From positions 280,855-344,854 of the forward strand of contig CAZDPY010000001.1 in assembly GCA_964507455.1 (NCBI GenBank): a DNA stretch of 64,000 bases, given 5' to 3'. The position numbers were made by a program, and so were the translations under genes. Source of the DNA: an uncultured Ignavibacteriaceae bacterium. GTDB taxonomy: Bacteria; Zixibacteria; MSB-5A5; GN15; PGXB01. Positions 42,936 to 64,000 of this stretch are shown one piece after another (the stretch's first letter is position 1; the number at the start of each line of letters is the position of its first letter). The notes under the pieces are model-generated. The model made no database searches, was not told the DNA's origin, and was given only the letters and a program-made list of their open reading frames with translations.

Positions 42936-43388
42936 TCAGTCTTGCAGTAGTTCCGGATGCTCGACCCTTAGCCAATCAAGCAATGCTTCTCGCAATTCTC
43001 TCGCCAGAGTTTTTGCTTCCTCGACCTCCGCCTCGGTGATCGTACCCGCCGCATCATAACTGACAATAGCTCTCTTTTTGCTTATTGCTTCCAAAGAAAT
43101 GATAATATCAGCATTGGGATCAATCGTAAATCGTAACGATTGAATAGTCCGATAATGCTGACCGGCACCCCCAGGAATACGATAACCGCTCACCCGTAAT
43201 GCAATGGTGGCACAACCGAGACAAGCATTGTATGCGATAGCCAGTCTCCAGTCGAGGGTAATCTCTTCTTTGGCGGCCTCTGCTATATCGCGGTCAACCT
43301 TGTCAAGCAGGTCTTTTATTTCTTGACGATTGGTGGTATGTCTTTTAAGCCACTTGCTATTTAGCCAGTCCTGTAAGGTCATCTTCAT
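42936..43388 (-). CDS. putative HEPN-like toxin partner of the MNT protein
   Basis: 150 aa, helical, immediately downstream of and overlapping the nucleotidyltransferase gene (the MNT-then-HEPN gene order). A canonical Rx4-6H motif is not evident, so the call rests on context. Confidence 0.5.
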   Translation of the reverse strand: MKMTLQDWLNSKWLKRHTTNRQEIKDLLDKVDRDIAEAAKEEITLDWRLAIAYNACLGCATIALRVSGYRIPGGAGQHYRTIQSLRFTIDPNADIIISLEAISKKRAIVSYDAAGTITEAEVEEAKTLARELREALLDWLRVEHPELLQD

Positions 43389-45903: not shown

Positions 45904-46587
45904 TTATTCTATTGCTATCTTCCTGCACATTTCTTTGTCATCAATCAGAGTTTGAAATTTGAGTGGATTAGATTCTAAATTTAATAATGGTCTGTGCATT
46001 TCAATAAGGTATTTTTCTATAATGAAAAGATCATCGAATTCAATCCAGCTCGCTTCCAAGTTTATATTCATCCAATCGATAATTTTTGACTCATCAGATT
46101 TCGAAAACTTATAGTTGTTCTTGTTCCTTTTGTCCTTAAGTGATCCGGGCGGTGGAGTAAATCCAAGCATGGCCCCGACACTTCGAAAAAAGGTCCCGTG
46201 ACCTTTCGCTCGTAGTTCTTGCCTAAGGAATCGAACCCTTAACGATTTCTTTTCCGCTTTACCGATATAGATTATTTTGCTATTTCTACTATCAAGCTCT
46301 AACTGATATTTTTCCGGAAGACTTGAACCATCGGCTAGTCGGATACAATATAGCCCTTTTTCATCTGGGACTAGGTTATCTATTCCCCCGATTTTGTGAA
46401 AAACACCTTCCTCAATCAGTTTCTTTGAAGTGTCTTTCGCAGTACTGATAGCCATTTCGTGTAATGTCTCAAAATAATTGGTTATATTTGTTATAATCTC
46501 AATAGCTTTTTCAGATATTTCGTAGCCATATTTTGGTGACCATACTTCAATTGTATTCTGTATGAGTTCTTTACTATACTCCGTCAT
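45904..46587 (-). CDS. GIY-YIG nuclease-family protein (second copy, unrelated N-terminus)
   Basis: 227 aa. KGLYCIRL...KIIYIGKAEKKSLRVRFLRQE...EKYLIEMHRPLLNLESN. Confidence 0.7.
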   Translation of the reverse strand: MTEYSKELIQNTIEVWSPKYGYEISEKAIEIITNITNYFETLHEMAISTAKDTSKKLIEEGVFHKIGGIDNLVPDEKGLYCIRLADGSSLPEKYQLELDSRNSKIIYIGKAEKKSLRVRFLRQELRAKGHGTFFRSVGAMLGFTPPPGSLKDKRNKNNYKFSKSDESKIIDWMNINLEASWIEFDDLFIIEKYLIEMHRPLLNLESNPLKFQTLIDDKEMCRKIAIE

Positions 46588-46859: not shown

Positions 46860-47078
46860 TCAGTCCTTACCATATATCTCTAGGTAATCCTCAATCTCCG
46901 GTATCGAAAACCAAATATGCTCACCGATTCTATAATACCGCAGTTTTCCAGGACCGGAATTTCCGGCCCTCGCGTTTATCCAGGCCTTTGAAACACCTAA
47001 TCTCTTTGCCAGCTCTTCCGGTGATATCAGGTAGGCAAGGAGACTTGAATCAAAGGTTGTACTATTGCCACCTTGCAT
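46860..47078 (-). CDS. second excisionase-type HTH protein
   Basis: The track ORF 46860..47282 overlaps the ATPase gene, so I prefer the internal Met at 47078 (MQGGNSTT...). ISPEELAKRLGVSKAWINARAG...YYRIGEHIWFSIPEIEDYL. Confidence 0.65.
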   Translation of the reverse strand: MQGGNSTTFDSSLLAYLISPEELAKRLGVSKAWINARAGNSGPGKLRYYRIGEHIWFSIPEIEDYLEIYGKD

Positions 47079-48963
47079 TTTCAATTTCCTCCTCAATTTC
47101 CTGGGCTTTGATTTTAGGCTGCTCAAGAAGTGCAATCCTGCGAGCTTCGATAAGCCTGTCAACCTCTTTTGCTGGTAGCGCATATTTTGCATTTGAGCGA
47201 TCAATGACTCTCTGCTTATCCTTTTCCCGAGCTCTGACATCTTCGACAAGTGTTGTGAGAATCGGAATCGGGTCGTCATCATTGATTTTTATATACGCGT
47301 GCCTCATTGGTTGACACATTACCCAGGCGATATATCGCTCCTTGATTTCCTCAATTGTGTAATAGGTTCGATTGGAGAGTTCCTCATCTCGGATGAACTC
47401 ATAAAACGGGACAACACTTCTTGATTGTCCTGTGCTTTTGGCGGTACTACGCGAATCGCTCCGGCCAGAAAAGGACGCAGATGAGTTCATATCAAAGTTA
47501 CTCGATGCAAGCGACAGCGACGATGAGTCTGTGTAGGACATATTACCATCTGATGACAAAACTCCAGAACTCGGAATCAAATGGTCAGCATGGCCAATTG
47601 CGGAACCGCTTGATGAACCAAAACCAGAACTACTTCCAACAGAATCGCCTTTCGAAATCGATTCTCCATGACTTTCAGATTGTGATTCCGTATTGACTAT
47701 GATCTCTCGGGTGGATTCTTCAGGTAAAATTATCCTGTGGTAAAGTTCATCCTTAATGAAATCGCCACTGATCTTCCCAGCGAACAACTCCTCAACTAGC
47801 TCCTCACTATCTTCTCGGTTCGATTTAAATGCGATTTTTATATCGCAGTTGGTCATAACATTTTCGTAATAACCAGGTATTTTTCTTATCTGAGCTAAGT
47901 TCTGGTAGCAAAGAAAAAGGTGGATACCAAACTTCCGAAGAGCTTGAAGTGAGTAGGGCAGGTCATCAGAAGTGAATTCAGCCGCTTCATCTACAATTAC
48001 AAAGAATGGTTTTTTCTTTGCCTGCTGTTTACTTCGTTGAAAGGCATAGTTAATCACTTGATCTACCAAAAGAATACCTAGAATTTGTTGGCATTCTCTC
48101 GATACTTTCAATGGGGCAAGGTTTACTAAGACTATTTTTCCATTCTCAATTGCTTCCCCGATATCAATGGTTGAGGTCTGTTGTCCAACAATTCTCCTTA
48201 TAGGATCAGAAAGGATCATTTTGGCAGCACGGTTAAGGGGTGCTTCAATCAAATTCACCTTATCTGAATAGGATTTTACTGCTTCAAATCCTTCCCACTC
48301 GCGCCGAACATAACTATTGTTGATATTCCCTAATGCGGCTTGTCTAAACAATGGATTTGCAATGCTCAGAAAATCCAATGCATCCCCCAAGGTTAAATGC
48401 GATTCAATAAGCGTCATTAAGAGATTGCGCTGCCAGCGTTCTAATCTTGGCTTTACTTCACTATCTGATTCGCCAAAGGTTTTCGCAATACCTCTCATGA
48501 CCTGAGAAGCATGTGCTGAAATATCCATCTGATTTCTAGCAAGAAAATTCAATCCAGGTGAGAATCTAGTGTCATTCGCATTGATTAGAGCTAACCAATT
48601 CTTATAACCATACCGCGTTGCATATGCAAGAATATCGTCATATAAAGTTCCGTGAGGATCCAAAAGCATAAGCCCTTGTTTGTTCTTTAAATGATAACGA
48701 ATTCGATTTTCAAGCATTTTGCTTTTACCGCGGCCAGTTCCGCCGACGGCCAAGGAATGGAGCCGTAAGCTCTTGGGGCTTAAACATATGTCTTTACCGT
48801 TGGTTATGTTTTGCCCTATTAAATAATGATTCCTGGACATTTCAAAATCTCCTTCATTGATAAAATGAGGGATTGAATATCCAATGGCGTTAGCATAGAG
48901 AGTTAAAGCCAGCAAAACCATTCCGCCGTAAAGGAGACATCTATTCGGCTTTTGGGTTTTCAT
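47062..48963 (-). CDS. membrane-anchored FtsK/TraD/TcpA-like coupling ATPase with Ser-rich C-terminal region
   Basis: 633 aa. N-terminal TM, Walker A VGGTGRGKSKM, LLDPHG, Walker B FFVIVDEAAEF, RKFGIHLFLCYQNLAQ. About 100 aa of low-complexity S/G-rich sequence precede a conserved tail. Confidence 0.75.
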   Translation of the reverse strand: MKTQKPNRCLLYGGMVLLALTLYANAIGYSIPHFINEGDFEMSRNHYLIGQNITNGKDICLSPKSLRLHSLAVGGTGRGKSKMLENRIRYHLKNKQGLMLLDPHGTLYDDILAYATRYGYKNWLALINANDTRFSPGLNFLARNQMDISAHASQVMRGIAKTFGESDSEVKPRLERWQRNLLMTLIESHLTLGDALDFLSIANPLFRQAALGNINNSYVRREWEGFEAVKSYSDKVNLIEAPLNRAAKMILSDPIRRIVGQQTSTIDIGEAIENGKIVLVNLAPLKVSRECQQILGILLVDQVINYAFQRSKQQAKKKPFFVIVDEAAEFTSDDLPYSLQALRKFGIHLFLCYQNLAQIRKIPGYYENVMTNCDIKIAFKSNREDSEELVEELFAGKISGDFIKDELYHRIILPEESTREIIVNTESQSESHGESISKGDSVGSSSGFGSSSGSAIGHADHLIPSSGVLSSDGNMSYTDSSSLSLASSNFDMNSSASFSGRSDSRSTAKSTGQSRSVVPFYEFIRDEELSNRTYYTIEEIKERYIAWVMCQPMRHAYIKINDDDPIPILTTLVEDVRAREKDKQRVIDRSNAKYALPAKEVDRLIEARRIALLEQPKIKAQEIEEEIENARWQ

Positions 48964-50332: not shown

Positions 50333-51853
50333 TTATTTATCCTCCGGTACAGTTAATTTATAGCCCCTTCCATATGATCCTTTGATTTCAAGATAAGGCC
50401 TGATTTTGTTATTCATGTTGTGAATGTGAACCTGAATGCTATGAGCCATATTTTTATGATATGTTTCATTCTTATATAATTCCGAAAAAAGAGCTTCATT
50501 GTCTAAGTGCAATGTCAGGTTCTGGACTAAAGCTTTAAATATAGCCAATTCCGTTGGCGTAAATTCCTTGCTTTCTTTTTCATCATCAAAATCTATGGTA
50601 TTTTCATCTAGTTTGATTGTAATTCCCGGCCTTTTAAATACGCGCGGCAAATTCTTCTTGAATCCATGAATCAAGCTTAAGATGTTGTCCATTATTAATA
50701 ATGCTTTAACCGTTACTGCTGATCCAATTGAATAATCTTCTTCAGCCAGTTGTCTAATATTATCCAATACCAATATCACCTTGTTTCTCTTTTCAATATC
50801 CCATGTGTGTCCTTGATTAGAAAGTAAACCATCCAAAGCCGTATATATGGTATTAGTACGATAAGGCATAGCAGCTATTGGAATCCTCTCAACACAATCA
50901 CGAAACCACTTACCTGCCTCATCAAAAATAAATACAGAAGCATAAATGCGGGCTATTCCCAACATAGTATCAGGTATATATGACAGAAGGTTATTTTTCG
51001 TGAAAGCATCATACATAGTAAAGAAATTTACATATGCATAATTATAGACTCTAAATCCAAGTGAGCAATTACTAGATAACAAATGTAGTTGAGGATCGAG
51101 TTGAAGGCCTTTAAGCACTTCGTACTTAGTGCCTTGTTCAAAGAAGTTTCTAGCATTTTGTGAATCACCTATCATTTGATAAATACGGCATTGAACAAAT
51201 GCATTATACTTTAACTCATGGTCAGATTTCTTCTCTAGACCAACAGATTGTCCAAGAGCTGCCTGGTTAAGCGCCTGGAGAAAATCACCCTTTTGTGCAT
51301 ATAGAAGTCCCAAATTCGATAATGCTCTTGATTGTGCGTAAGAAATATTTGACTGTTGGTAATATTCAATGCTCTTCTGTAGATAATAAATAGCGTTGTT
51401 CAATCTCATAGACATTTCATTTAGATTAGACATAAGATTCATCGAATCGGCCATGGTCGATTTGATATTTTCTGATAATGCAGTATCAAATGCTGTGCGA
51501 GCGTAACGAATCGCATTTTCGTAATCCATGATACTACTGGAGATATGAGCGGAGGTTAATTGTACAGTTGCTAGACCCTCCGGCTCAAAATTATCCTTAG
51601 CAATTGAGATAACTTCTTTTATCTGCTCTTTGCATTCAGATATCTGCTCATTAGTGCGATAATTGTTGCTACTCAGCAGTAAAGCATATGCTATAAAATC
51701 ATGATCTTTTTTTTTAAATCCTACATCTATTGCTTTTTTATATAAGTCTGTGGCTACCTTAAAATCTTTTGAGTTTGAAGCTTCATTTGCCTTATCAAGC
51801 AAAGACCTATATGTTTGGGCTTTGGTCATTTCATCCTTTCTATTCAATTGCAT
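50333..51853 (-). CDS. TPR-repeat protein with C-terminal OmpR/PhoB-type winged-helix DNA-binding domain
   Basis: 506 aa. N-terminal TPR-like repeats. The C-terminus FTPTELAIFKALVQN...HSIQVHIHNMNNKIRPYLEIKGSYGRGYKL resembles Trans_reg_C. Confidence 0.65.
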   Translation of the reverse strand: MQLNRKDEMTKAQTYRSLLDKANEASNSKDFKVATDLYKKAIDVGFKKKDHDFIAYALLLSSNNYRTNEQISECKEQIKEVISIAKDNFEPEGLATVQLTSAHISSSIMDYENAIRYARTAFDTALSENIKSTMADSMNLMSNLNEMSMRLNNAIYYLQKSIEYYQQSNISYAQSRALSNLGLLYAQKGDFLQALNQAALGQSVGLEKKSDHELKYNAFVQCRIYQMIGDSQNARNFFEQGTKYEVLKGLQLDPQLHLLSSNCSLGFRVYNYAYVNFFTMYDAFTKNNLLSYIPDTMLGIARIYASVFIFDEAGKWFRDCVERIPIAAMPYRTNTIYTALDGLLSNQGHTWDIEKRNKVILVLDNIRQLAEEDYSIGSAVTVKALLIMDNILSLIHGFKKNLPRVFKRPGITIKLDENTIDFDDEKESKEFTPTELAIFKALVQNLTLHLDNEALFSELYKNETYHKNMAHSIQVHIHNMNNKIRPYLEIKGSYGRGYKLTVPEDK

Positions 51854-51908: not shown

Positions 51909-52310
51909 TTAACCCTCTCTGCTTTCAACTGCTTCCATGACCTCCTTTTCTACCTTTTCAACATTGTCTTCATGTTTCTTACTACCGCCCAACATGATCA
52001 GGTTTCGTATCACAATTTCCGTTCGAACCTGTTTACTACCGCTTTTATTGCTCCAGGCCCGGTTATGCAGGCGACCGTCAATATAAACACGGTCCCCTTT
52101 TTTGAGATACTTGGCCACTACGTCGGCAAGTCGACCCCATGCCAGAACATGGTGAAAATCCGTAGTTTCCTGACGTTCTTTGGATTTGGCATCGCGCCAG
52201 ACGTAGCTTGTGGCGATTTGGAATGACGCCACTTTTTGGCTTGAAGGCAATTCCCGGCTGGTCGGATCTGCTGTCAGATTACCGATCAGCTCTGCTTTGT
52301 TGAGATTCAT
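51909..52310 (-). CDS. ssb: single-stranded DNA-binding protein (no acidic C-terminal tip)
   Basis: I start at MNLNKAELIGNLTADP (52310); the track ORF extends to 52418. OB-fold pattern ..FQIATS...TDFHHVLAWGRLADVVAKYLKKGDRVYIDGRL. Confidence 0.85.
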   Translation of the reverse strand: MNLNKAELIGNLTADPTSRELPSSQKVASFQIATSYVWRDAKSKERQETTDFHHVLAWGRLADVVAKYLKKGDRVYIDGRLHNRAWSNKSGSKQVRTEIVIRNLIMLGGSKKHEDNVEKVEKEVMEAVESREG

Positions 52311-52665
52311 ATACATGAATCCTTTCACCAGCGATAAATTGATAATGTCGAGGCTTACGCTGGCTTGCTTCTCCGCTTTCCTCAATAGCATAGAGGGCTG
52401 GAGTAGCTGAAAATCCAATGGCGTATAATTTATCGAAGCCTGGATTTAAAGCCAAGCCGATGTTGCCTGTGGTCAGGTGAAAGCTGTCCACCAGGCTGTC
52501 GAGCGCAGTTCGTCAAGGTGGAGCCACGACCTACCTTGGACGGATACTGAGACTCTATGATATCCTGAATCACCTGCAGGCAAGCAGGGTACTTGAAAAT
52601 TCATTGTTGCTATTTGCGGCGAATTTTAACAATTTTAATCATTACAAAATCTATTAGGAGGAATC

Positions 52666-53292
52666 ATGAAAAAAGAAAAAGATGGTCAAAATCCTTTTAA
52701 TCAAGATTCGGATGAGGAAATAATAGAGCGTCTTATAAATATTAAAGACTATACACAAGAGACTCAGGGTTTAATCAAGGCAGAGGCAGAAAGCAGACCT
52801 GGTATTCAAGAAAAATATCTGAAAGTAAAAGAACAACTTCGTTCCATCGAAAACCAAATACTCGAACACTCAAAAAAGGAAGAACGAAATAGAAAGGATC
52901 GCTTCCCTGCATTTACAGTTGGATGTTTTCTGGGGGCGATTGCGTGGATTATCTTTTTGATTGCAGAAGGTGGAAAAAAGCCAATTGAACTCATATTTAT
53001 TTCAGTATTTTGGCTTCTAAGCGCTCCTCTATTCTTGATAATGTTGGATTCTAGCTTTAACCCATCGAAAAGCCCTTTAAGGTATTTTATTGGAATTGGG
53101 GGGCTGGCAATAATTAGTTTATTATTTGTTGGGAAATTAGCGCCTCATGAAATAGTTGTCTTGTTTATTTATTATTTTTTTATAGGATGGTTAGCTTCGA
53201 AGTTACTTAAGAATGTTGTCAAAAGAGATAGTGCCTATGGAAGATTGCTTTCAAAATTATGGCCAGATCTTCGAATAAAATCCAATAAATAA
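52666..53292 (+). CDS. membrane protein of unknown function
   Basis: 208 aa. GGAGG RBS, soluble charged N-terminus, then 4 hydrophobic helices. Confidence 0.6.
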   Translation: MKKEKDGQNPFNQDSDEEIIERLINIKDYTQETQGLIKAEAESRPGIQEKYLKVKEQLRSIENQILEHSKKEERNRKDRFPAFTVGCFLGAIAWIIFLIAEGGKKPIELIFISVFWLLSAPLFLIMLDSSFNPSKSPLRYFIGIGGLAIISLLFVGKLAPHEIVVLFIYYFFIGWLASKLLKNVVKRDSAYGRLLSKLWPDLRIKSNK

Positions 53293-53498: not shown

Positions 53499-54608
53499 TT
53501 ATTCAATCAATGATTGAAGTCCTTTTTGAGGATTCGGAGTAATCCACGATTTTGAAAAAATGCTGTTTGGTTCTTCAATACTGAACATGTCAAGCGTTGA
53601 GAACCAAAAGAGGGCACTGCTTGAAACATCGCGTCCGAATTTAGGAAAGCTCGATAGAATATTTGCTATGCGACCCTTAGTATTTCCATCCTTTGATAAT
53701 TGACCGGGAACCACGAACAGAACAGTAAACCCTCGGATCGGTTCTAAATCGATATTCGAGACATTCGCAGACCTTTCATCTTTAACAAAGAGCCCCGATA
53801 CCTCGCCATTAGGATATTTGGTATAGAAATATCGATTCGCATGCCGTTTAGTCTTTCTATAAAACCAATACCCCAAAACCTTTTTACTGATATCAGAATT
53901 ATCATCAGTCCTGATAATCGGCATGCTACCCCGGTCAAATTCTGCGAAAAAACATGTGGTTCCTTTACCGCGAACATTAATGGCAAAAAACGCATCTGGA
54001 TAGACTGAGAGCCTTTGTTCCCTGCCCATCAAATTCATTCCGTAAACGAAGTCCCTGAGGATTTGGCCCTGTTCCCAAAATAGCAGATTGACATTACCAT
54101 TTGAATTATTACAGGCCAATTTTAATATAGCTTTGAACTCGGCGATTTTAATTGAGTGTTCGTAGAAGTGCGTTCTTGCTCTTCTATTTGACTCTACAAT
54201 TTTCCTAATATCCGATGAGCTAGCATCTACTATTTTGGGCAAAATACTACAGCTTTTTGGCCCTAAGGAATAGACCAATCTTGATAAGCCGTGTACGCCG
54301 CCTTCTGGTAAATCAGCTCTCCTCCTTCTATAAACATATTTCTCCTGATCCAGCTTTGTAAGGCGGCTCAGTAATGCTTTTGAGCCAAACCCGTATTTTG
54401 AAGGGCGTTTTTTGCCATCCGCCCCAATTTTGTATTCCGTTTCATGTGATTTTGGACTTTCAAGCAGGTGCCAGATTAATTTTGAATCAAGAAATCTGTG
54501 CTCATAAATGAGCTTCAGGATTTCTTGATCCCGCTCGGTAGGAACGAAATCAGGGGAATTTTTCCGTTTAGGGTGATTTCGTGATTTTTCTGGGCTGGGT
54601 TTCTTCAT
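53499..54608 (-). CDS. replication-relaxation (Replic_Relax) family protein
   Basis: I prefer the start MKKPSPEK at 54608 (GGAGA RBS 4 nt upstream); the track start at 54674 would run into the structured element. PTERDQEILKLIYEHRFLDSKLIWHLL.. is the family's N-terminal wHTH signature. Confidence 0.75.
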   Translation of the reverse strand: MKKPSPEKSRNHPKRKNSPDFVPTERDQEILKLIYEHRFLDSKLIWHLLESPKSHETEYKIGADGKKRPSKYGFGSKALLSRLTKLDQEKYVYRRRRADLPEGGVHGLSRLVYSLGPKSCSILPKIVDASSSDIRKIVESNRRARTHFYEHSIKIAEFKAILKLACNNSNGNVNLLFWEQGQILRDFVYGMNLMGREQRLSVYPDAFFAINVRGKGTTCFFAEFDRGSMPIIRTDDNSDISKKVLGYWFYRKTKRHANRYFYTKYPNGEVSGLFVKDERSANVSNIDLEPIRGFTVLFVVPGQLSKDGNTKGRIANILSSFPKFGRDVSSSALFWFSTLDMFSIEEPNSIFSKSWITPNPQKGLQSLIE

Positions 54609-54641
54609 ATAATCTCCAAGCATCCCGTAGGGATTCCTTTT

Positions 54642-55106
54642 TCGCGCGCCCCTCGTCGGCGGCCGAAAGTCCAATTATTTGGACGTCCGCCCCGCAAAAC
54701 CGAGCTGAAGGCGCAGGTTGAGCGGCTGGCGGTTCGAGCGCGCCCGACTTTGCTCGCTTCGATTTGCCCCACCGCTGAAGTCAGATATGCGGGGCAAATC
54801 CGAGTAAGGAAACAATTACTTGTTTCCGTCGAAGCCCAAGGCTCTCCGGGTTCCTGGTCTGCTTCGAATTTTATTAACCACCACAACCGTCACTGCCAGC
54901 ACAAGAAGCAGACGAGGTAGAGAGACGCGGGGAAGGGAGCAAAGTCGGGCGGTACGCACCGACATTATCCCCTTGCATATCAGCCACTTAATGGCTGATT
55001 AAAGTAGAAAAGCATAATTAGCTTTTCTACTTTCAAAATAGTCTTTTACAGACGAAAAACAAGGGGAAAATGTCAAGGTGCTATCCGACCGACGAGGGGC
55101 GCGCGA
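54642..55106. other. ~465-nt GC-rich nested inverted-repeat element (candidate large structured ncRNA, or ssDNA-active oriT/origin/ssDNA promoter)
   Basis: P1 pairs 54642-54659 with 55089-55106 (18/18). P2 pairs 54741-54755 with 54937-54951 (15/15). P3 pairs 54963-54975 with 55060-55072 (12/13). There are at least 7 local hairpins and no plausible ORF. Confidence 0.7.
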
Positions 55107-55273
55107 GCTGTCGAAGACAGCCAAAATAAAAATGCATTGCTACGAGATCTTTCGTCTGCGGCAATAGTAGCAAAGGTTGCCAAATTCAATCCGCTTCCGG
55201 CAGACTTTACATTTGGGCTGATCTCGATATCGAGTCACCTTTTTTCTAAAAGGACTCGGTCTCTCTCTATGGC

Positions 55274-55825
55274 TCATTTTCTCGTCGATATCAGATCCAA
55301 ATAAGTTCTGCCACAGGCAATCGCATCGGTCATATTTAGAAAGGCCTTCAGTGTCGAATTGGGCTTATTTATTATAAATATACGCAATTCCGGGTATCGG
55401 CTGACGATAGCCTTAGCAAGCTCAAGCTTGGTAGCATTTCCGTTTTTGCAAATCACTGCACGCACGGTGTTGGGTGCATATTCGATTACCCTGATGTCGT
55501 ATTTCAGTGCTTTTGCCTTAATCCTGGCAATAGTCATCATCAGGCGTAAATTATTTGTGATTTGCGAAAACCGATTCTTTTCAAGAATTATTTTATCAGG
55601 CCTTTTTTCAATTATAAGTCGTTCCACGGCTTTTTCGATTGCATTCAAATTTCTTTCTATGGGAAGCGGAGTATCAAATGACTTCAGGCCAAAATCCAGC
55701 AGATTTTCACCTTCAAAATCTGCATATCCAAATATCTTGGTGCCCGGATCAATGGCCAGGATTCGTTCTGTCTTCGGGATAGTATTTATATTCGAAGACA
55801 ATGTTGTTTTGAGCTTTTGCCTCAT
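55274..55825 (-). CDS. RuvC-like Holliday-junction resolvase (RNase H fold)
   Basis: 183 aa, alignable by eye to RuvC. ILAIDPGTKIFGY (Asp), IILEKN (Glu), YAPNTVRAVICKNGNATKLEL, NMTDAIACG (Asp). The start is uncertain (77-nt overlap with the XRE ORF). Confidence 0.75.
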   Translation of the reverse strand: MRQKLKTTLSSNINTIPKTERILAIDPGTKIFGYADFEGENLLDFGLKSFDTPLPIERNLNAIEKAVERLIIEKRPDKIILEKNRFSQITNNLRLMMTIARIKAKALKYDIRVIEYAPNTVRAVICKNGNATKLELAKAIVSRYPELRIFIINKPNSTLKAFLNMTDAIACGRTYLDLISTRK

Positions 55826-56069
55826 AAACCTCTTGTTTTAATTGATTAAATAAATCAAGGAAAAGAATCTCAACTGGACATTGAATCGCCAGGGCAAGGC
55901 GCAGGCTATTTTCCAAAGAAGGAAGTTTCCTGCCCTTTTCCCAATGTGAGATATGTGCTACACTGGATTGGCCGATCAATTTGGCAACATCCCGCAACCG
56001 GAGGCATCGTTCTTGACGACGATACCTCCGGATTTGATTTGGGAATGATTTCTGGCGGGATTTGGACAT
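55749..56069 (-). CDS. XRE/cI-type HTH repressor
   Basis: 106 aa. IRRYRRQERCLRLRDVAKLIGQSSVAHISHWEKGRKLPSLENSLRLALAIQCPVEILF. Confidence 0.85.
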   Translation of the reverse strand: MSKSRQKSFPNQIRRYRRQERCLRLRDVAKLIGQSSVAHISHWEKGRKLPSLENSLRLALAIQCPVEILFLDLFNQLKQEVYEAKAQNNIVFEYKYYPEDRTNPGH

Positions 56070-56244: not shown

Positions 56245-56985
56245 ATGGTATGCTATAACCATCTCATTCTTAATCATAAAAATATGCGGGATGAAAACGG
56301 GAAATTTCTTGGCTTTTATTCGCCAAGATATACACAGGTTCCCGATGAACTCTTTGACGAGCTCCTGGCGGAGCTATCCGGCTCGGAAACAAAGGTTCTG
56401 CTATATGTTGTCCGGCGGACTTTCGGTTTTAAGCGTGATTCTGACCATATAAGTTTATCTCAAATGGTGAATGGAATAACCAAAAAAGACGGCACCATTC
56501 TGGACAAAGGCACCGGTCTTCATAAAGATTCAGTTATAAAGGCTATAAAATCCCTTGTTGATAAGGGTATTTTACTTCGCAAAAGGAAGACCTCTGATCA
56601 GCATGGTTATACCGCGACCGAATATGCTCTGAATATCCGCAATAATACCTTGTCGGATAATCCGACAAGGGGGCATGTCCTAAAAAACCGACAAGCCTTA
56701 CCCGAAAAATCCGACCGACAAGAAGACAGTAGACAAAATACAGATATAACGTTTAGTAAAACTGTGGATAACTCAAAGGCTTTACAGAATAAGGAGCTTT
56801 TGAGTCAGATTATCATGACCTGTCGCGATCTAGATTCAATTAATTACTACAAAAAGGTCGTCAGGGAAGTTCCTAAATTCAAAATCCTCAGCGCCCTCAG
56901 CCAGGTAAAAGAAGCCCAAACCTTAGGCCGTGTGCGAAAAAATGCAGGAGCTATGTTTACGGATATTATTAGACGAGTTATTTAA
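56245..56985 (+). CDS. putative replication initiator / replisome-organiser-like wHTH protein
   Basis: 246 aa. YTQVPDELFDELLAELSGSETKVLLYVVRRTFGFKRDSDHISLSQMVNGI...TGLHKDSVIKAIKSLVDKGIL is the pattern of phage/plasmid Rep-organiser N-domains (recognised by eye). An alternative start lies at 56284. Confidence 0.6.
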   Translation: MVCYNHLILNHKNMRDENGKFLGFYSPRYTQVPDELFDELLAELSGSETKVLLYVVRRTFGFKRDSDHISLSQMVNGITKKDGTILDKGTGLHKDSVIKAIKSLVDKGILLRKRKTSDQHGYTATEYALNIRNNTLSDNPTRGHVLKNRQALPEKSDRQEDSRQNTDITFSKTVDNSKALQNKELLSQIIMTCRDLDSINYYKKVVREVPKFKILSALSQVKEAQTLGRVRKNAGAMFTDIIRRVI

Positions 56986-59105
56986 AGACAGGAAACAGAA
57001 TCTTTTATTATCTCTTTTTCAAAATCGGTCAAGTCCAGATTTTCAACCGCCAATACCTTAAGCTTAGCCAGTGTCTTATCTAGGTTGCCATCTTCAGATA
57101 TTACACTTTCGATTTTACGAGCGATTTCTAGCGGAATTCCATATTCGTCTATGGCAATGATTGCAGGGTCCAAAAATAGATTCTCAATTAAAACTCCAAA
57201 AGACTCATAGTTACCAGTCGGTAATTCGTATCGTTTGAAAATGTCCCTTTGTATAATGTCAACCACGCGCAATAGTCTAGGAAAATGAAAAGTAGCCCAG
57301 AGACGTAGGAAATCCAAGGTTTGTTGAACGGCTTCATCTGGGTCTTTTTCCCATTTAAGTTTATCAATAATTAGATCTTTTGCAGATGGTTTCCTAGACA
57401 ACTTACTAACAAGAAACGCCAACTGCTTTGCTGTTCTAACACTTCCACCACCGAGTCTATGTCCTCCAAAATGATTCCAAATTACGAAACACATGAATTC
57501 TAGTTGTTTATAGTTTGGAATATTCGTCCAGTAGAGATTCTTATGGTAATATTCTATCCGTTGATGTATTTCAGCTGCAAGTTCTAACTGTATATCAGGG
57601 TCAATTCCAGAGTTTTTGCGAAGAACTTCATAACTTAGAATGTCTTGCTCAGAGTATTTTTTAACTCGCTCCTTGGCCTGCGGCTCCAAATCTTCATCAT
57701 CTAGTTGAATTAACAAACTGGTTGGTGTGTCCGTACTTTGAGTATATGCAGGAACATCTACAAACGGCAATTCATATTGCGGAGGTGACTTAAAAATATA
57801 TACATGTCCAATAAAATGCTGCATCATTCTACCAGACCGTCCACGAATGTTATTAAAAGTGAAAAAGTCAATGGGATTTCGGTTGATCTCATTATCCAGA
57901 ATCACCATGTTTCTGGCTTTTGTATTAACACCTTCTATCAAAGTAGAAGTACAAACCATAAACTTTAACTCACCAGAGTTAAATTGTCTGACAGCAAATT
58001 GCGCTAGAGAGCGCGGTATGCGGCCATGATGAACACCAATTCCTTGTCTTATAGCATGGGCAAAATGCCAATCAGGGTGATAATTATAGCATATCCAATC
58101 TGCAGCTGGCTTAAGTCTCGCTGACTCTTTACCAATCCCTGCTTCGATAAGAGCTTTAGCTATATCGGATGCGCGTTTTGGTGATCGACAAAAAATACTA
58201 GTTGAATCATCGAAAGTTTTACATAAATCAATTAGAGTTTTTACATCTTCTTCACCGGCAGAAACATCGTGTACTTCTGATATTACTGTCTGGTAAGGAT
58301 CTAGTATAAACTTACAATCAACGCGCTCTTGGAATTCCTGGGGTAGCCCAAATATGCTTGGACCCAGCATATAAAATCTTTTTGAAAGTTTATGCAGCTT
58401 GTAGAATGCCTGATTTAATAGTGCTGCACGCTCATTATCATCCCTAGTAGGGTCTAGTTTATAGAATTCGTCAATCACGAAAAAATCAACTTGTGCTAAC
58501 GTATCAAATTCTATTACCCTCTCCTGTGTCAATACAAAGATATTCCTATTAGCAGGCCCCTGTGAAGTATGTGTTATAACCTTAAATCTATCACGAAATC
58601 TGCGTGACAAACGTCTTCTAGTCTCATCAATAAGCGCAATAGTCGGTACAACAATTACAACGTTATCAAATAATCCGGAGGCTATAATGGCGTCGATTAT
58701 CAGGCTCTTGCCATAACTTGTAGGTGCACTGAGAGCGATATTTTCTCCCTCTAAAATTCTTCTATATATTTCACCTTGTGCAGCATGAAATACAAACTCG
58801 TCTTCAAGGTTGATTGGTTTGTGATATTCAAAGGCCATTTGGTCACGCAATGAAAGCTCAGATTGTTCTAGATATGGATACAATCCCGCCCTTCTAGTAA
58901 TTGAATTCAAAAGATCTGCATATTGCTCAAAGCACGACTTGGCATCTAGGGCTCTTAGAACATACTCTTGGAAAACCTCCTGCAAATCCGGATCAGCTCC
59001 AAGCCTAGAGATGCTACTCAGGATAGAAAAACTATTCTCACTAAGTGTTGTTCTTTCTGAGAAAGAATTCTTTAAGTAAGTAATTAGTTCGCTATGATTT
59101 GACAT
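56982..59105 (-). CDS. hamB: Hachiman HamB, SF2 DEAD/DEAH-box helicase
   Basis: 707 aa. Motif I SAPTSYGKS, motif II FFVIDEFYKL, TSTLIEGVN, motif VI NIRGRSGR. Immediately downstream of and overlapping a DUF1837 gene. Confidence 0.85.
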   Translation of the reverse strand: MSNHSELITYLKNSFSERTTLSENSFSILSSISRLGADPDLQEVFQEYVLRALDAKSCFEQYADLLNSITRRAGLYPYLEQSELSLRDQMAFEYHKPINLEDEFVFHAAQGEIYRRILEGENIALSAPTSYGKSLIIDAIIASGLFDNVVIVVPTIALIDETRRRLSRRFRDRFKVITHTSQGPANRNIFVLTQERVIEFDTLAQVDFFVIDEFYKLDPTRDDNERAALLNQAFYKLHKLSKRFYMLGPSIFGLPQEFQERVDCKFILDPYQTVISEVHDVSAGEEDVKTLIDLCKTFDDSTSIFCRSPKRASDIAKALIEAGIGKESARLKPAADWICYNYHPDWHFAHAIRQGIGVHHGRIPRSLAQFAVRQFNSGELKFMVCTSTLIEGVNTKARNMVILDNEINRNPIDFFTFNNIRGRSGRMMQHFIGHVYIFKSPPQYELPFVDVPAYTQSTDTPTSLLIQLDDEDLEPQAKERVKKYSEQDILSYEVLRKNSGIDPDIQLELAAEIHQRIEYYHKNLYWTNIPNYKQLEFMCFVIWNHFGGHRLGGGSVRTAKQLAFLVSKLSRKPSAKDLIIDKLKWEKDPDEAVQQTLDFLRLWATFHFPRLLRVVDIIQRDIFKRYELPTGNYESFGVLIENLFLDPAIIAIDEYGIPLEIARKIESVISEDGNLDKTLAKLKVLAVENLDLTDFEKEIIKDSVSCL

Positions 59106-59950
59106 GCCTTCAATCTCTCATCAAAAGCTTCAACAAGTTTTTGTTTATCTTTAAGTGGAAGTAACAATAAGTGTATTACAATATCTGAGGGCAGATCCTT
59201 TTCGCAAAAAACAGAATGGTTATTTACCAATTCTCTTTTTATCTCATTCAAGAATTCCTCTGACACAGAATCATAGGACGAAATTGTCTCGCTTTCGTAG
59301 GTCAAAAATACAGGAAAACATAGAGAGTCAAAAATCTCATCCAAAGATCTGTTTCGGTCGATTAATTTCTTCAATTCAACTGAAAAAGGCCATGCAGGGT
59401 CTATCTTATTTTGAATCGCGGTAAATTCTGATCTAAGATAGTTATTGTCTGTATGCTCGACCAATTCGCCAACTACGGCATTTATGGCAGAATTGATATC
59501 TTTATAGAACTTTGATTCACCCAACCAGAGATTAAGTGTAGAATCGCTTTTAACTACATGGACTGCATCAAAACCTTTCACCGTATCATTTGCCGAGTCC
59601 TTAAAATATATTTTTGATATTGCAGGTAAGGAGCCATATTCTTGACGTATTATTGCATGTAGGAGTATTTCCCCTATTTCTCCTCGTTTTTTTAAATCTC
59701 TAGACGCATAAATTGCACGGGCCGCCTTTGCTGCCAATGCTATTAAGTTATCGGAACCAATCCCCACTCTCTCTCGCTCAGTCAATGCGTATTCTGGTAA
59801 CCATTCCATTAAATGACCGGCCAATTGCTCACAGCGCCATTCACATGATTCATAACCAGCACAAAGTCCAAGAAGGCTTGGTAATGGCTCTGCAATATTT
59901 ACTCGAACTTCAAGGAATTTTGCTGGCGTCCTAATAATAAATTGTGCCAT
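59084..59950 (-). CDS. hamA: Hachiman HamA (DUF1837, PD-(D/E)xK-like effector)
   Basis: 288 aa. KKRGEIGEILLHAIIRQ...KGFDAVHVV...LWLGESKFYKD is the hallmark DUF1837 core. Confidence 0.8.
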   Translation of the reverse strand: MAQFIIRTPAKFLEVRVNIAEPLPSLLGLCAGYESCEWRCEQLAGHLMEWLPEYALTERERVGIGSDNLIALAAKAARAIYASRDLKKRGEIGEILLHAIIRQEYGSLPAISKIYFKDSANDTVKGFDAVHVVKSDSTLNLWLGESKFYKDINSAINAVVGELVEHTDNNYLRSEFTAIQNKIDPAWPFSVELKKLIDRNRSLDEIFDSLCFPVFLTYESETISSYDSVSEEFLNEIKRELVNNHSVFCEKDLPSDIVIHLLLLPLKDKQKLVEAFDERLKACQIIAN

Positions 59951-60320: not shown

Positions 60321-60731
60321 TTAATGTTGTTTTAACTTTCTTAATATTTTCTGCTCTAATTTACTTACCGTTTCGAGTTCACATTCCCAAATAACAAATA
60401 CTGACCAGCCCAGATCACTCAACTTTTTTGCCACTACTTCATGCCGCCGGACATTGTCTCTGAATTTTTTATTCCAAAAAGCTTTATTTGATTTCGGAGT
60501 ATATGCGTACTTACATCCGGCGTGTCTGTGCCAATAGCAGCCGTGTACAAAAATCACAGTTTTATATTTTGGCAGGACAATGTCTGGTTTGCCTGGAAGA
60601 TCTGATACATGTAGTCTAAATCTATATCCAAGACTATGAAGTAATGAACGCACAACTTTTTCCGGTTTGGTATCCTTGGACTTTATTCGTGACATGTTCC
60701 AGCTGCGGCGTTCTTTTGAAATCTTGTCCAT
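60321..60731 (-). CDS. vsr: very-short-patch repair endonuclease
   Basis: 136 aa. MSRIKSKDTKPEKVVRSLLHSLGYRFRLH..LPGKPDIVLPKYKTVIFVHGCYWHRH. Confidence 0.92.
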   Translation of the reverse strand: MDKISKERRSWNMSRIKSKDTKPEKVVRSLLHSLGYRFRLHVSDLPGKPDIVLPKYKTVIFVHGCYWHRHAGCKYAYTPKSNKAFWNKKFRDNVRRHEVVAKKLSDLGWSVFVIWECELETVSKLEQKILRKLKQH

Positions 60732-60746
60732 AATCCAAATTTCAAC

Positions 60747-62309
60747 CTATGTCATTTCCGAGTCTTCAATTAGTTTTCTTACTATTCCTGCAATCTCTCT
60801 GGCCAGCAAAGGGGGAACGGCATTTCCCACCTGTTGGTATTGCGAAGTCTGTGGTCCTTCAAAGAAGTAATTATCCGGGAAAGTCTGGATCCTGGCTGCT
60901 TCACGCACGGTCAGGCTCCTGCATTGAACAGGATCGGGATGTATGTAATAATGGCCATCCTTTGCAATATGTGATGTTATCGTAGTTGCCGGACGAGTTT
61001 TTACCTGAACTCGGAACCTGTCCGAAAACAGCCCGCCATTATCTTTTAGAGCCTGCTCAACATTGGAGTGCCCCGGCAATAGTGAAGACGGAAAATCCCT
61101 CAAAGTAGGGGACTTGCGATAAACTGAGGCAAAACAGGCTGCGTAGAAATACCTGTGCAGATCAGCGGCCATATGGCTCTTTGCTCTGTGATTACAGACA
61201 CCTTGTATTCTTTTATCGGTGTACCAGCTTTGGGAATAGCCTGATTTAGTTTTTGATTTTACGAACTGTCCGCCCGTGTTCATTTTTGGCCTGATTTTCT
61301 GTCCGGCTGTTATTACTTTTTCAATTAGAGCATTTTCTGCATCAGGGGCATATTGATTAATATTATCAATAAAAATCTTCAAAGAATCTGCCCAGGAACT
61401 GTTTTCTCGATCTCTGTTTGAAAGCTGACTTCGTATTTTGGGTAAAGAATTGATGACTTTCCAGGAACCGAGTGTCTTGGTTCGATTCTTCAAAACTGTG
61501 GGTTTGATTTTTATGTCGCTTCGAACGCCTAATAGAATGACCCGATGTCTTGCTTGCGGAATCCCGTGTTTTTCAGATTTTACAACAAAGCAAGCAGGAT
61601 CGTCCTCCTCCATTTCCACGCCATAGTCAACAACGGGATAAACATTGTATCTTATTTTACCGGTAGCGCCCGATTTTGACAGTGCTATTGAAGGATTCTG
61701 CAGGTCATTCAGGATTTGTTTGAATATGTTGAAACCATTGACCTTACTGCTTAAAAGCCCGCGAACGTTTTCCATAACAAATACCGGTGGCTTATGCACG
61801 CAAAGGATTCTCAGATATTCCTTATATAGAAAATGGCGAGGGTCCTTTTCGAATGTCTCCGGGTCCTTGGAACGCATTCTTGATCTGCCTGCTAATGAAT
61901 ATGCCTGACAGGGGGGACCTCCTATGAGAACCCACACGCTATTACCATTTAATGCCTTAAATATTCGCTTGTCTACCAGACGATTCGGGAATTCGTTTCC
62001 GCCTAATTCTGCGTTCCAGGCGATTTCACTCGCTCTTTGCGATTGAGTTGGAAAAGATTCCCATAGTTTTTCACGTAATATTTCACCTCTTAAATATTGG
62101 AAATATTCTGTGGGGACCTCTTCATATTTGAATTGGTGAAAAAATGCACGCAATTCAAGAGTCTTATGTGCGTTGGCATCCTTTTCAATACTTAAAACAG
62201 TCCCGAATGATACTTTTCCTTTAGTTGCATAAAGCGAGTTGAATCCCTCACAAAGCCCACCGGGACCCGCAAAAACGTCGATAACTGGTATTTTGACAAT
62301 CTCTTTCAT
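60747..62309 (-). CDS. dcm: DNA (cytosine-5)-methyltransferase
   Basis: 520 aa. Motif I DVFAGPGGL, motif IV GGPPCQAYS, motif VI ENV, motif X QQVGNAVPPLLA. Unusually long variable/TRD region. Confidence 0.92.
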   Translation of the reverse strand: MKEIVKIPVIDVFAGPGGLCEGFNSLYATKGKVSFGTVLSIEKDANAHKTLELRAFFHQFKYEEVPTEYFQYLRGEILREKLWESFPTQSQRASEIAWNAELGGNEFPNRLVDKRIFKALNGNSVWVLIGGPPCQAYSLAGRSRMRSKDPETFEKDPRHFLYKEYLRILCVHKPPVFVMENVRGLLSSKVNGFNIFKQILNDLQNPSIALSKSGATGKIRYNVYPVVDYGVEMEEDDPACFVVKSEKHGIPQARHRVILLGVRSDIKIKPTVLKNRTKTLGSWKVINSLPKIRSQLSNRDRENSSWADSLKIFIDNINQYAPDAENALIEKVITAGQKIRPKMNTGGQFVKSKTKSGYSQSWYTDKRIQGVCNHRAKSHMAADLHRYFYAACFASVYRKSPTLRDFPSSLLPGHSNVEQALKDNGGLFSDRFRVQVKTRPATTITSHIAKDGHYYIHPDPVQCRSLTVREAARIQTFPDNYFFEGPQTSQYQQVGNAVPPLLAREIAGIVRKLIEDSEMT

Positions 62310-62318
62310 GTGTCCTTT

Positions 62319-64000
62319 TTAATCAAAATCCGGCTTTACCGGATTGGCCGGGTCAAAACCAAGTCTCTTTGCTTCTTTCATAATTTTCAGCGCCTGAATC
62401 GCCTGTTTCTTAGATGGATCTCGGTCCTTACCTACATATCGTTTACCGATATTGTATGCTAAACTTCTTTGCCAGGGCTGAAGATTTCGAGTCTGTTTTG
62501 CCCAAAGGGATAAGGATAACCACGACTCAGATGGAATGGACATAACTTCACGGATGTTCTTCATATCCTCTTCTGTAATCGTATTTTTATCCAAGTGAAG
62601 TTTCTCTCCTCCACCGGGCCGCATTTCAACGAATTCTTTTTCGAGTTCCGGGCTGATATTGATTTCAACTTCACAGAATTTATCCCAGCATTCCTGCTTT
62701 TTACACCATTCAGTTATATTCGCACCGCCTGGAGGCGATGTAATATGTTCAAAAACGTATTTAGAGACATTAATGATTTCGTTTTGTAATACTTCAGAAA
62801 GTCCCTGTTCCTGCCATATATTCTCCAAGTCAATTCTCATATCTGAGCGTCTTACTATATAGGATAAAGTGTAAGTGACAATATTCGCCCGATAACCTCC
62901 GTATTTTTGTCTTTGAACCAGAAGTTCGGCTCGCCGAAACATTATCGCTTTGGCTATTAGACGGCGGAAATATTCCTCATCCGGCAAATATGACCCATTA
63001 TCTGCAAGTCGGACCATAAATTCCTGGAAGTTCTTTTGAGCTCCTCGGCTTACCAAATGAGGTAACTGAAACCAAGTATTTTCAAACTTTGCAAGATCTG
63101 TTTTTGTGAATTTTTGCCGGCTTGGATGCATTGCCTCAAATGCCCTTTTTCTGGCAGGAGTGCGTTCCCTTGCCTTTTCATTTAAATACTGCCCTCTCGC
63201 TCTCTCATAAAACCATCTTGTCTGTCGCTGTTCACCCCTGACAGCGGGTGCCCATACGGTCCGGGAAAGCTCCTCAAGCCGTCTATGAAACGGATGATTT
63301 GAAGAAAAATCGGCTACGCTAATCTTGTTTTGACTATTTGAATACTGCGATATCTTTGGAACCATATCATCCATTTCCGAAGTACTCGAAACTGCCGTAA
63401 TCTTTCCCACAACTCGGATTTTTGACAGGTCAGCTTTATCTTTTACATGCGCTCCGTAAAGCGATGCTACCGTCTGAGCACCATTTACAATTTGAAAATC
63501 CTTCATACGAATTATGGAACTCCTGCCATTTGATCCGGGTTTCGTTACCGCTTCGTCGGCGACAATACAGATGCCATTGTTGAAAGCCAAAAACATCTCA
63601 GGTTCATTAAGAATTGTCTCTCTTATTCCTTTATTTACTTTCCCTCTAAATTGCAGGAACGTTCGAACGTTTTTCTCCAGTAACCTGGGACCAAATGTTT
63701 CGTATATTTTAACCAGTAAATCACCCGTGAATATGGACAGATAACTCTTGTAGGGCGAGTCCGGTAGCGTAACGTCCATACAATCAAGAGATTCTCCGAA
63801 CAATTCCGTAAAATCAATCTGTATTTCCTCTCGTTCTCGACCCGAAGTCCAAAGCCTATGCAATCTCACCAAGTCCCAAATTTCATATGAGGAGGCAACC
63901 CCATTAATTGCGGGATCGAGTTTTGGATTGTAATCTGTAATACAATCACTCAGAAGTATAAACCTGACTCCAGCAATTGTGTTTTTGAGATCATGAATTT
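62319..64000 (-). CDS. AIPR (abortive-infection phage-resistance) family protein, N-terminus beyond window
   Basis: The track starts at GTG 63872, but the frame stays open to position 64000 (..IHDLKNTIAGVRFILLSDCITDYNPKLDPAINGVASSYEIWDLVRLHRLW..). FLAFNNGICIVADE and IVNGAQTVASLY are AIPR motifs. Confidence 0.8.
   Translation of the reverse strand, partial: IHDLKNTIAGVRFILLSDCITDYNPKLDPAINGVASSYEIWDLVRLHRLWTSGREREEIQIDFTELFGESLDCMDVTLPDSPYKSYLSIFTGDLLVKIYETFGPRLLEKNVRTFLQFRGKVNKGIRETILNEPEMFLAFNNGICIVADEAVTKPGSNGRSSIIRMKDFQIVNGAQTVASLYGAHVKDKADLSKIRVVGKITAVSSTSEMDDMVPKISQYSNSQNKISVADFSSNHPFHRRLEELSRTVWAPAVRGEQRQTRWFYERARGQYLNEKARERTPARKRAFEAMHPSRQKFTKTDLAKFENTWFQLPHLVSRGAQKNFQEFMVRLADNGSYLPDEEYFRRLIAKAIMFRRAELLVQRQKYGGYRANIVTYTLSYIVRRSDMRIDLENIWQEQGLSEVLQNEIINVSKYVFEHITSPPGGANITEWCKKQECWDKFCEVEINISPELEKEFVEMRPGGGEKLHLDKNTITEEDMKNIREVMSIPSESWLSLSLWAKQTRNLQPWQRSLAYNIGKRYVGKDRDPSKKQAIQALKIMKEAKRLGFDPANPVKPDFD

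Follow-up and report, generated by a model that had tools for sequence, protein, structure and literature searches.

A conserved, co-varying 465-nt fold beside a MOBC-type relaxase gene in islands of Zixibacteria and Ignavibacteria: a candidate transfer or replication site

Single-strand origins (sso), such as those of rolling-circle plasmids and sso1 of ICEBs1, lie in non-coding DNA beside a relaxase or initiator gene, and are predicted to form several stem-loops only when single-stranded. The ICEBs1 sso1 is about 200 bp long, comprises three stem-loops, lies next to nicK, and is orientation-specific (PMC4595007). A second kind of site is the origin of transfer (oriT) of relaxases of the MOBC type, e.g., TraX of pAD1 and MobC of CloDF13; TraX binds five direct repeats located 70-120 bp from the nick site, nic (PMC12857230). 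MOBC relaxases form no covalent intermediate, and how the strand is marked, delivered, and re-joined is listed among the open questions in a 2025 review (PMC12857230). Here we describe a structured non-coding element of about 465 nt, at positions 54642-55106 of a 64,000-nt stretch of contig CAZDPY010000001.1 (the window), from an uncultured Ignavibacteriaceae bacterium placed by GTDB in the Zixibacteria. The element adjoins a gene for a relaxase-like protein of the Replic_Relax family (PF13814), and we tentatively assign it to the class of cis-acting transfer or replication sites of mobile elements, as an unusually elaborate member.

The predicted architecture is a four-way junction closed by a long helix, P1, with three arms, i.e., domains 3, 2, and 1 along the + strand, each of which is itself branched. 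In P1, positions 54642-54659 pair with 55089-55106 at 18 of 18 positions, and the helix reaches about 21 bp when the sequence is folded; its 5' arm (54642-54662, core TCGCGCGCCCCTCGTCGG) pairs with the 3' arm at 55085-55106 (CCGACGAGGGGCGCGCGA). The P1 arm sequence has only two sites in the 64-kb window, against 0.01 expected. Domain 3 (54664-54736) is built on the stems CGAA/TTCG (54664-54667 with 54733-54736), CCGCC/GGCGG (54687-54691 with 54728-54732), and CCG/CGG (54692-54694 with 54723-54725), and contains a hairpin at 54669-54684, which is absent from some homologues, and an inner hairpin at 54698-54719. Domain 2 (54741-54951) is closed by P2, in which 54741-54755 and 54937-54951 pair at 15 of 15 positions; with one mismatch P2 extends to 20 nt (54741-54760 with 54932-54951), and its core, CGCCCGACT/AGTCGGGCG, is invariant. 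Within domain 2 are hairpins at 54761-54800, 54806-54829 (54808-54827 as first listed), and 54833-54843, as well as the helix P2a (54853-54865 with 54905-54917). The 39-nt terminal loop of P2a (54866-54904) is hypervariable, with 17-43 nt across homologues, and its closing stem, CTGCTTC/GAAGCAG, is strongly conserved. Domain 1 (54952-55084) includes P3, paired at 14 of 15 positions between 54961-54975 and 55060-55074, with an outer extension (54952-54960 with 55077-55084), and holds hairpins at 54979-54999, 55001-55033 (13 of 13 pairs; conserved stem AAGTAGAA/TTCTACTT), and 55041-55053. Every helix and hairpin listed in an earlier sequence-only reading of this DNA was found where that reading had placed it.

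That reading had also described the element as a GC-rich non-coding fold, and this description is borne out with z of about -14 to -15, on either strand and with RNA or DNA parameters. Relative to dinucleotide shuffles, folding with RNA parameters gives z = -14.8 for the + strand and -14.1 for the - strand, and folding with DNA parameters gives -15.0 and -13.3 for the two strands; in every one of these runs, no shuffle equalled the element. [quoted passage not shown] About 130 base pairs are predicted for the element, 83 of which belong to the consensus across homologues. We know of no described oriT with approximately this number of predicted base pairs in a nested, co-varying fold.

By analogy, ICEBs1 sso1 appears to be the nearest documented case. 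As in the sso, there is extensive intrastrand pairing in a non-coding region beside a relaxase gene (cf. PMC4595007), and like sso1 the element has three stem-loop domains and a preferred strand. However, the element is two to three times larger, its domains are multi-branched, an 18-21-bp helix closes the whole, and it has neither CS-6 nor sequence similarity to known sso types. An origin of the ssoA type, of which CS-6 is the hallmark, is not supported on this count.

The Replic_Relax protein has 42 homologues at 40-50% identity, encoded in metagenome-assembled genomes (MAGs) that are mostly labelled as Zixibacteria or Ignavibacteria, and in a few cases as Bacteroidota or archaea, as well as in metagenomes. 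Homologous elements were sought upstream of Replic_Relax genes by blastn and with an nhmmer profile. They were found at all loci that have enough upstream DNA and a Replic_Relax protein at least about 33% identical, i.e., at about 35 loci. The elements measure 410-505 nt, have a constant orientation, and lie 35-70 nt upstream of the relaxase gene in all cases; the same searches did not find the element at about 120 loci with more distant Replic_Relax genes. The surroundings are likewise conserved: a helix-turn-helix (HTH) regulator gene, a RuvC-like nuclease gene, a 45-aa zinc-ribbon open reading frame (ORF), the element, Replic_Relax, and, farther on, a coupling protein gene follow one another in this order, with synteny in more than 20 loci. 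Several MAG and metagenome contigs (L002, L003, L004, L017, L082, L086, and L091) begin 37-67 nt upstream of Replic_Relax, at the edge of the element, or within it, and in some MAGs the module is present at least twice (L006 and L010; L021 and L025; L003 and L023). The conserved element probably acts as a repeat that breaks assemblies.

Covariation was assessed with 24 upstream regions in a plain MAFFT alignment (A2), for which RNAalifold gave the consensus of 83 pairs. In A2, 94.7% of cells are paired, and changes on both sides occur at 52 of the 83 pairs (286 cells); none of 500 shuffles reached the covariation measures. When the partners are slid by 1-3 columns, pairing falls to 38-48% and the covariation score drops from 0.40 to about 0.09. 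All four Watson-Crick types occur at columns 304-306 / 533-535. Helix by helix, double compensatory changes are seen in 11 of 17 pairs of P1 (95.6% of cells paired), at 8 pairs of P2 (99.1% paired), in 8 of 10 pairs of P2a, and in 7 of 11 pairs of the hairpin at 55001-55033; the stems of domain 3 are 97-100% paired, also with double changes. The covariation of P3, which RNAalifold did not call on A2, is visible by eye in alignments A2 and A3 (GACA/TGTC, CATCA/TGATG, and others). We regard helix 7 of the RNAalifold consensus (A2 columns 423-426 / 467-470), the sole G-U-rich helix, as doubtful, since one-sided variation is seen in two of its four pairs. When 30 homologues are folded separately, the three-domain architecture is recovered. 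Thus, the pairings are conserved and co-varying, and from conservation, covariation, and synteny taken together we conclude that the element is real, old, and, as the alignments indicate, under selection for pairing in a single-stranded state.

These data also bear on whether the element could be functionless in itself, either as a miniature inverted-repeat transposable element (MITE) or as what is left of a decayed gene or of decayed nested insertions. Its 18-bp perfect terminal inverted repeats, its size of about 465 bp, and a G+C content unlike that of the island would suit a MITE. There is, however, no target-site duplication and no second copy in the 64-kb window, and the element occupies the identical syntenic position in about 35 diverged loci, with extensive internal covariation. 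Nor does a decayed coding sequence, which had been named as an observation that would overturn the structural view, fit the data: no consistent open frame was found, and indels of 1-2 nt break the frame in conserved parts. Both were rejected, as already contradicted by the data, and we accord them a negligible probability. Two other candidates were set aside as well: an iteron replication origin, as direct-repeat arrays are absent and only weak two-copy direct repeats occur, and a guide RNA acting through the P2a loop (54866-54904), whose identity or complementarity to its own locus and to the window is not above that of shuffled controls.

In natural structured RNAs, between several per cent and roughly a tenth of the helical pairs are G-U, and such pairs are the usual intermediates of compensatory change; in DNA, by contrast, G-T is a destabilizing mismatch. 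Among the 1893 cells in the reliable helices of the homologue alignment, 1767 are Watson-Crick, 32 are G-T, and 30 are A-C. For P1, P2, and the stems of domain 3 together, the corresponding counts are 1097, 5, and 10. An alignment of 29 sequences shows the same scarcity of wobble as the set of 24. In addition, some pairs alternate between C-G and T-A almost without intermediates, in proportions of 13:11 at columns 109/653 and 13:11 at columns 314/525 of A2. The scarcity of wobble on both strands argues for DNA. The view that all-Watson-Crick helices fit single-stranded DNA (ssDNA) at least as well as RNA, first formed on one sequence, therefore holds over 24-29 homologues, in which wobble is as rare as A-C. 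The G-U count in the small flanking hairpins, meant as an internal RNA control, was uninformative.

The distribution of conserved nucleotides is of interest in the same regard. Nearly all of them are in stems; the conserved unpaired positions number 12 and are scattered, and the helices are long and regular. In ribozymes and riboswitches, the pattern of conservation is the opposite of this stem-centered one, which suggests that proteins may recognize duplex segments of the element. One may ask, then, whether the element functions as double-stranded DNA, i.e., as paired sites bound by the relaxase or by the HTH, RuvC-like, or zinc-ribbon protein, or else as local cruciforms, with the apparent covariation arising from half-sites that change together with the protein. 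The stem sequences are indeed strongly conserved (e.g., CCGCCCGACT/AGTCGGGCGG, CCTCGTCGG/CCGACGAGG, and AGTAGAA/TTCTACT), a symmetric constraint would account for the absence of wobble on either strand, and the RuvC-like nuclease and the relaxase both belong to superfamilies that include junction-resolving enzymes. Yet more than 10 different nested repeat pairs would each need to be recognized separately, and many pairs vary freely and still stay complementary, which is a signature of base-pairing rather than of protein contacts. Moreover, the P1 arms are 430 nt apart and cannot extrude unless the entire region is single-stranded, and loop composition and stability are clearly strand-asymmetric. 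A role as double-stranded DNA thus seems highly improbable.

This strand asymmetry favors the + strand, i.e., the strand opposite to that of the relaxase gene. RNA parameters make the + strand the more stable one at 24 of 30 loci, and DNA parameters do so at 29 of 30 (mean 6.5 kcal/mol, p = 3e-6). The unpaired bases of this strand comprise 38% A, 22% G, 22% U, and 18% C, and it shows 12 GNA triloops (7 closed by C-G), versus 2 on the gene strand, whose unpaired bases are U/C-rich and G-poor. Because the energy model contains loop bonuses, the stability and loop measures are partly dependent on each other. In conjugative elements, the relaxase gene is usually on the lagging side, and genes are templated by the transferred strand (PMC11541004). 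By this rule of gene orientation, the transferred strand would therefore be the + strand, the same one that folds better.

The orientation also bears on the earlier proposal of an Frpo-type ssDNA promoter upstream of the relaxase and ssb genes. Frpo consists of a single long hairpin, 50-350 nt in size, which imitates a -35/-10 promoter and is situated upstream of leading-region genes. Frpo and single-strand initiation (ssi) sites resemble the element, whose role as ssDNA is predicted, in being ssDNA folded after transfer, in conjugative elements that carry ssb (PMC11541004). However, the element is multi-branched rather than a long hairpin, it has no -35/-10, and by the usual rule the lagging side is where the relaxase and ssb genes are predicted to be, so that it would not be their early promoter; the proposal finds no support in this comparison. 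No motif of the ssoA, Frpo, or Bacteroidetes promoter type is conserved among the homologues.

The better-folding strand might instead encode a stand-alone large non-coding RNA (ncRNA), antisense to the relaxase gene, i.e., a new 'ornate' class like GOLLD, ROOL, and HEARO. The ornate RNAs (GOLLD, ROOL, OLE, HEARO) and the plasmid motifs ARRPOF, GEBRO, and PAGEV are of a similar size class, with several domains and strong covariation, and they too occur on mobile elements with a G+C content above that of their surroundings. For the three plasmid motifs, the choice between ssDNA and RNA was likewise left open (PMC5737381). The element thus recalls large bacterial RNAs in its size, its multi-domain form, and a G+C content that stands out from AT-rich surroundings; the A-rich, C-poor unpaired bases of the + strand are typical of structured RNAs, and several loci have a second, terminator-like hairpin beyond P1, followed by a T-run on the + strand. 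In the window, the position beyond P1 holds one hairpin, GCTGTC-GAA-GACAGC (55107-55121, + strand), located between P1 and the zinc-ribbon ORF; other loci have one or two hairpins there (CGACCAC..GTGGTCG, TTCCAATC..GATTGGAA). In contrast to those RNAs and motifs, however, the element has no covariance-model match and no appreciable G-U pairing, with no excess of wobble on the + strand (30 cells against 32); tetraloops of the GNRA and UNCG types show no enrichment (3-6 among about 65), and conservation is centered on stems, not on junctions or loops. Space for a promoter is lacking as well. A small GC hairpin (54622-54634), between the element and the relaxase start codon, precedes P1 by 8 nt on the + strand and, with the T-run that follows it, resembles an intrinsic terminator directed towards the element; promoter-like sites were not detected. 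We thus consider a + strand ncRNA a rather improbable reading.

Rfam 15 covariance models, run on both strands, gave no match at gathering scores in the whole window. The only match in the window, to sot2652, scored 19.3 bits, far short of that family's gathering score of 61 (E = 0.36), and for nine homologous loci nothing was found at E <= 0.1, the EAR and put families included. The element thus matches no known RNA family, as had been supposed from the window's sequence, and blastn against plasmid and phage records revealed no DNA similarity. Full-text literature searches found no published description of the element.

The second way in which the element might act as RNA is in cis and in the sense of the genes, within an HTH-RuvC-zinc-ribbon-relaxase transcript, e.g., as a leader or intercistronic platform for relaxase expression, as a site for RNase III or other processing, or as a processive antitermination RNA like put, EAR, or conAn2. 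The flanking genes share one strand and are closely spaced, so the region is almost certainly transcribed in this direction. In addition, the element is at a constant 35-70 nt before the relaxase start, and the hairpin at 54622-54634, which co-varies among loci, is on the - strand just ahead of the relaxase Shine-Dalgarno sequence. RNAs that load RNA polymerase are known from conjugation operons (PMC8955417), and conAn2 of pLS20, put, and EAR are likewise structured, at the head of conjugation genes, and on the same strand (PMC8955417). Covariation by itself cannot tell RNA from ssDNA; that is, motifs of the two kinds are not reliably separable by sequence analysis (Weinberg et al., PMC5737381). 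Against this, conAn2, put, and EAR are much smaller and show no homology to the element, which has no match to the latter two families or to any other in Rfam, and the strand and wobble evidence argues against RNA. G-U accounts for 1.7% of cells, equal to A-C mismatches; in 24-29 of 30 loci, stability is lower for the gene strand, whose unpaired bases are U/C-rich and G-poor and on which GNRA or UNCG loops are not enriched. Perfect helices of 15-21 bp would serve as RNase III substrates, and a gene on the opposite strand (52666-53292) breaks the supposed operon downstream of the relaxase. A cis-acting sense RNA is accordingly unlikely, though we would keep it in view. RNA of either kind, taken together, is a real contender, somewhat short of the reading we prefer; that is, the suggestion of a large structured ncRNA is weakened by the wobble, loop, and conservation data, but persists as a rival.

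The relaxase-like protein has 369 residues and is encoded on the - strand at 53499-54608, with an ATG at 54608 preceded by a GGAG Shine-Dalgarno sequence. It matches PF13814 with 41.4 bits, above the curated cut-off of 25.3. This family has been placed in the PD-(D/E)XK fold (PMC3424549), and is the MOBC relaxase family of CONJscan (PMC5357655, PMC12857230). Asp205, Glu223, Asp225, and Lys243, the acidic and lysine residues of the PD-(D/E)XK site, are invariant across 38 homologues. The predicted structure (predicted local distance difference test, pLDDT, 87.6) consists of an N-terminal winged helix and a PD-(D/E)XK domain; a structure search gave only weak matches, to domains of the MarR/PadR type and to Cas4, AddB, and FokI. 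An N-terminal winged helix is also present in TraX of pAD1 (PMC12857230). The element further resembles the oriT of pAD1 and of CloDF13 in having a PF13814/MOBC-type gene directly downstream, in an island that encodes a coupling protein, and in containing inverted repeats. It differs from the pAD1 oriT in having no array of direct repeats, and from CloDF13 in that the relaxase has no detectable similarity to any of its ORFs. The genomic context thus agrees with the earlier idea of an oriT: the element is a non-coding site beside a MOBC-type relaxase gene, the island carries a coupling protein, and the synteny is conserved, with oriT activity being a prediction.

We therefore favor, with a probability of roughly 0.45, the reading that the element is an oriT-associated structure of the transferred single DNA strand, i.e., the + strand, and would work like an sso. 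The relaxase would recognize the invariant duplex segments, namely the GTCGG/CCGAC cores of P1 and P2 and AGTAGAA/TTCTACT, perhaps assisted by the RuvC-like and zinc-ribbon proteins, and would nick the + strand within or beside the element. Once unwound, or in the recipient, the + strand would fold into the branched structure, and the folded strand would serve as a single-strand origin or as a termination platform. As such it might resist coating by SSB, flag the strand's ends, and attract functions for priming and/or end-joining.

A number of observations weigh against this oriT-associated reading. With 465 nt and three multi-helix domains, the element goes far beyond documented oriT, sso, and ssDNA promoters in elaboration, and complexity of this degree is more typical of RNA. 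The element is part of a string of genes on one strand and is probably transcribed anyway, and the terminator-like hairpins that the + strand has on both sides of it hint that transcription matters there. The strand preference is drawn from energy models and loop composition, with no asymmetry of wobble to accompany it. No conserved unpaired motif of at least 6 nt that might be a nic site was found among the homologues; CS-6 (TAGCGT/A) was present on the gene strand in 3 of 30 elements and on the other strand in 1 of 30; and no promoter-like sites were found in 54300-55500, with TTGACA and TATAAT in at most 5 of 30 homologues. As to the protein, tblastn and profile searches of CloDF13, which encodes the MOBC prototype MobC, gave no similar ORF and no common motif arrangement, in a prototype comparison that covered CloDF13, and no relatives of the relaxase were found in 72,556 plasmid records. 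About 95 distant Replic_Relax loci mostly have no exceptional structure upstream, and as most Replic_Relax genes are without a strong one, MOBC relaxases in general need none. Lastly, the nicking, transfer, and replication activity of all members of the family is itself a prediction.

A bolder version of the oriT-associated reading is invited by the facts that MOBC relaxases form no covalent intermediate, that both neighboring nucleases come from superfamilies with junction-resolving members, and that the fold is built on a four-way junction. The element would then be a multi-domain ssDNA fold, the most complex natural one described, and a self-templating platform for a non-covalent relaxase. 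A hydrolytic nick inside the element would put half of the nested helices on each end of the transferred strand; the halves would re-pair in the recipient and hold the 5'-phosphate and 3'-hydroxyl as a ligatable nick, and the co-encoded RuvC-like nuclease could handle the four-way junction. We regard this version as speculative and doubtful.

The distant Replic_Relax loci provide a further comparison. Their upstream regions have z mostly between -4 and +2, compared with -9 to -15 in the element-bearing subfamily, and the largely unstructured state of these loci (about 95) rules out upstream structure as a general property of Replic_Relax genes. There are three exceptions, one in an Actinomycetota MAG (L074) and two in metagenome contigs (L112 and L116), with proteins that are about 26-28% identical. 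At 250-460 nt upstream of the gene, each has a smaller element of nested inverted repeats, about 185 nt in size (positions 2612-2808 of L074, 2550-2732 of L112, and 700-880 of L116). The core of these mini-elements, CGTCGG .. CCGACT .. AGTCGG .. CCGACG, is nested as in the large element and enclosed by an outer purine-rich helix, GGGGAGGAA/TTCCTCCCC; L112 and L116 additionally have the CTGCTTC and GGCTCGAA motifs. The alignment of the three mini-elements is poor. The shared core suggests that the 465-nt element may be an old relaxase-linked core enlarged by domains added later. That such a core has seemingly been retained despite the divergence of the proteins fits a recognition site for a cognate protein on nucleic acid.

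The element had been described as lying in the gap between the RuvC and Replic_Relax genes. It is non-coding, but an ORF in that gap had been missed, namely the zinc-ribbon-like ORF of 45 aa (55140-55277, - strand; MSHRERPSPFRKKVTRYRDQPKCKVCRKRIEFGNLCYYCRRRKIS; CxxC-x9-CxxC), located between the RuvC gene and the element, with a start that overlaps the RuvC stop codon. The real non-coding gap is thus 54609-55139, with 33 nt from the zinc-ribbon stop to P1 and 34 nt on the relaxase side. The motif ..C..C.KI.FG.LCYYCRKRR.. is kept between RuvC and the element in about 20 loci; the ORF has no Pfam family, and its product may be an accessory protein of the relaxosome. Farther upstream on the - strand are the RuvC-like junction endonuclease gene (55274-55825), which is conserved upstream of the element, and the HTH_3 regulator gene (55749-56069), the first of the conserved module. 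On the other side of the relaxase gene, the 208-aa gene at 52666-53292 is on the + strand, and genes for SSB (51909-52418), a TPR/Trans_reg_C protein (50333-51853), and a type IV coupling protein of the TraG/TrwB kind (47062-48963), conserved downstream of the relaxase in many loci, are on the - strand. Beyond the coupling protein, the genes for DUF6880 (41685-42935), a Polbeta-type nucleotidyltransferase (43357-43995), DUF3800 (44522-45607), and a GIY-YIG_2 nuclease (45904-46587) are probably more cargo of the same island.

A gene for a phage-O-like replication initiator, at 56245-56985 on the + strand, also lies within the module, with counterparts of 64-65% identity in L007, L018, and L090. 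Once excised, the island may replicate autonomously. A Hachiman defense system on the - strand adjoins the mobilization module (HamB helicase at 56982-59105, HamA at 59084-59950), and L018 has HamB and RepO homologues at the equivalent place. Further cargo of the defense type comprises a Vsr endonuclease (60321-60731), a C5 cytosine methyltransferase (60747-62309), and an AIPR abortive-infection protein (62319-63872). Phage and viral collections, including two viral-contig scans, contained no relatives. A relaxase, a coupling protein, and an SSB, together with this absence of phage or viral relatives, point to an integrative mobilizable or conjugative island with defense cargo.

A deeply conserved, co-varying fold of about 465 nt that belongs to no known family, and is linked to a poorly understood class of relaxases, would surprise specialists. 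If it is DNA, folded ssDNA would reach a complexity so far known only from large RNAs, and there would be a concrete, testable handle on MOBC-type relaxases, which have no covalent link to DNA; the bolder version, if true, would answer how MOBC-type elements re-circularize without a covalently bound relaxase. If it is RNA, uncultured bacteria of the Fibrobacteres-Chlorobi-Bacteroidetes (FCB) group would have a new class of large, ornate ncRNA linked to conjugation. Either way, the element marks an undescribed family of mobilizable, defense-carrying islands in Zixibacteria and Ignavibacteria, for which its conserved sequence can be used as a marker.

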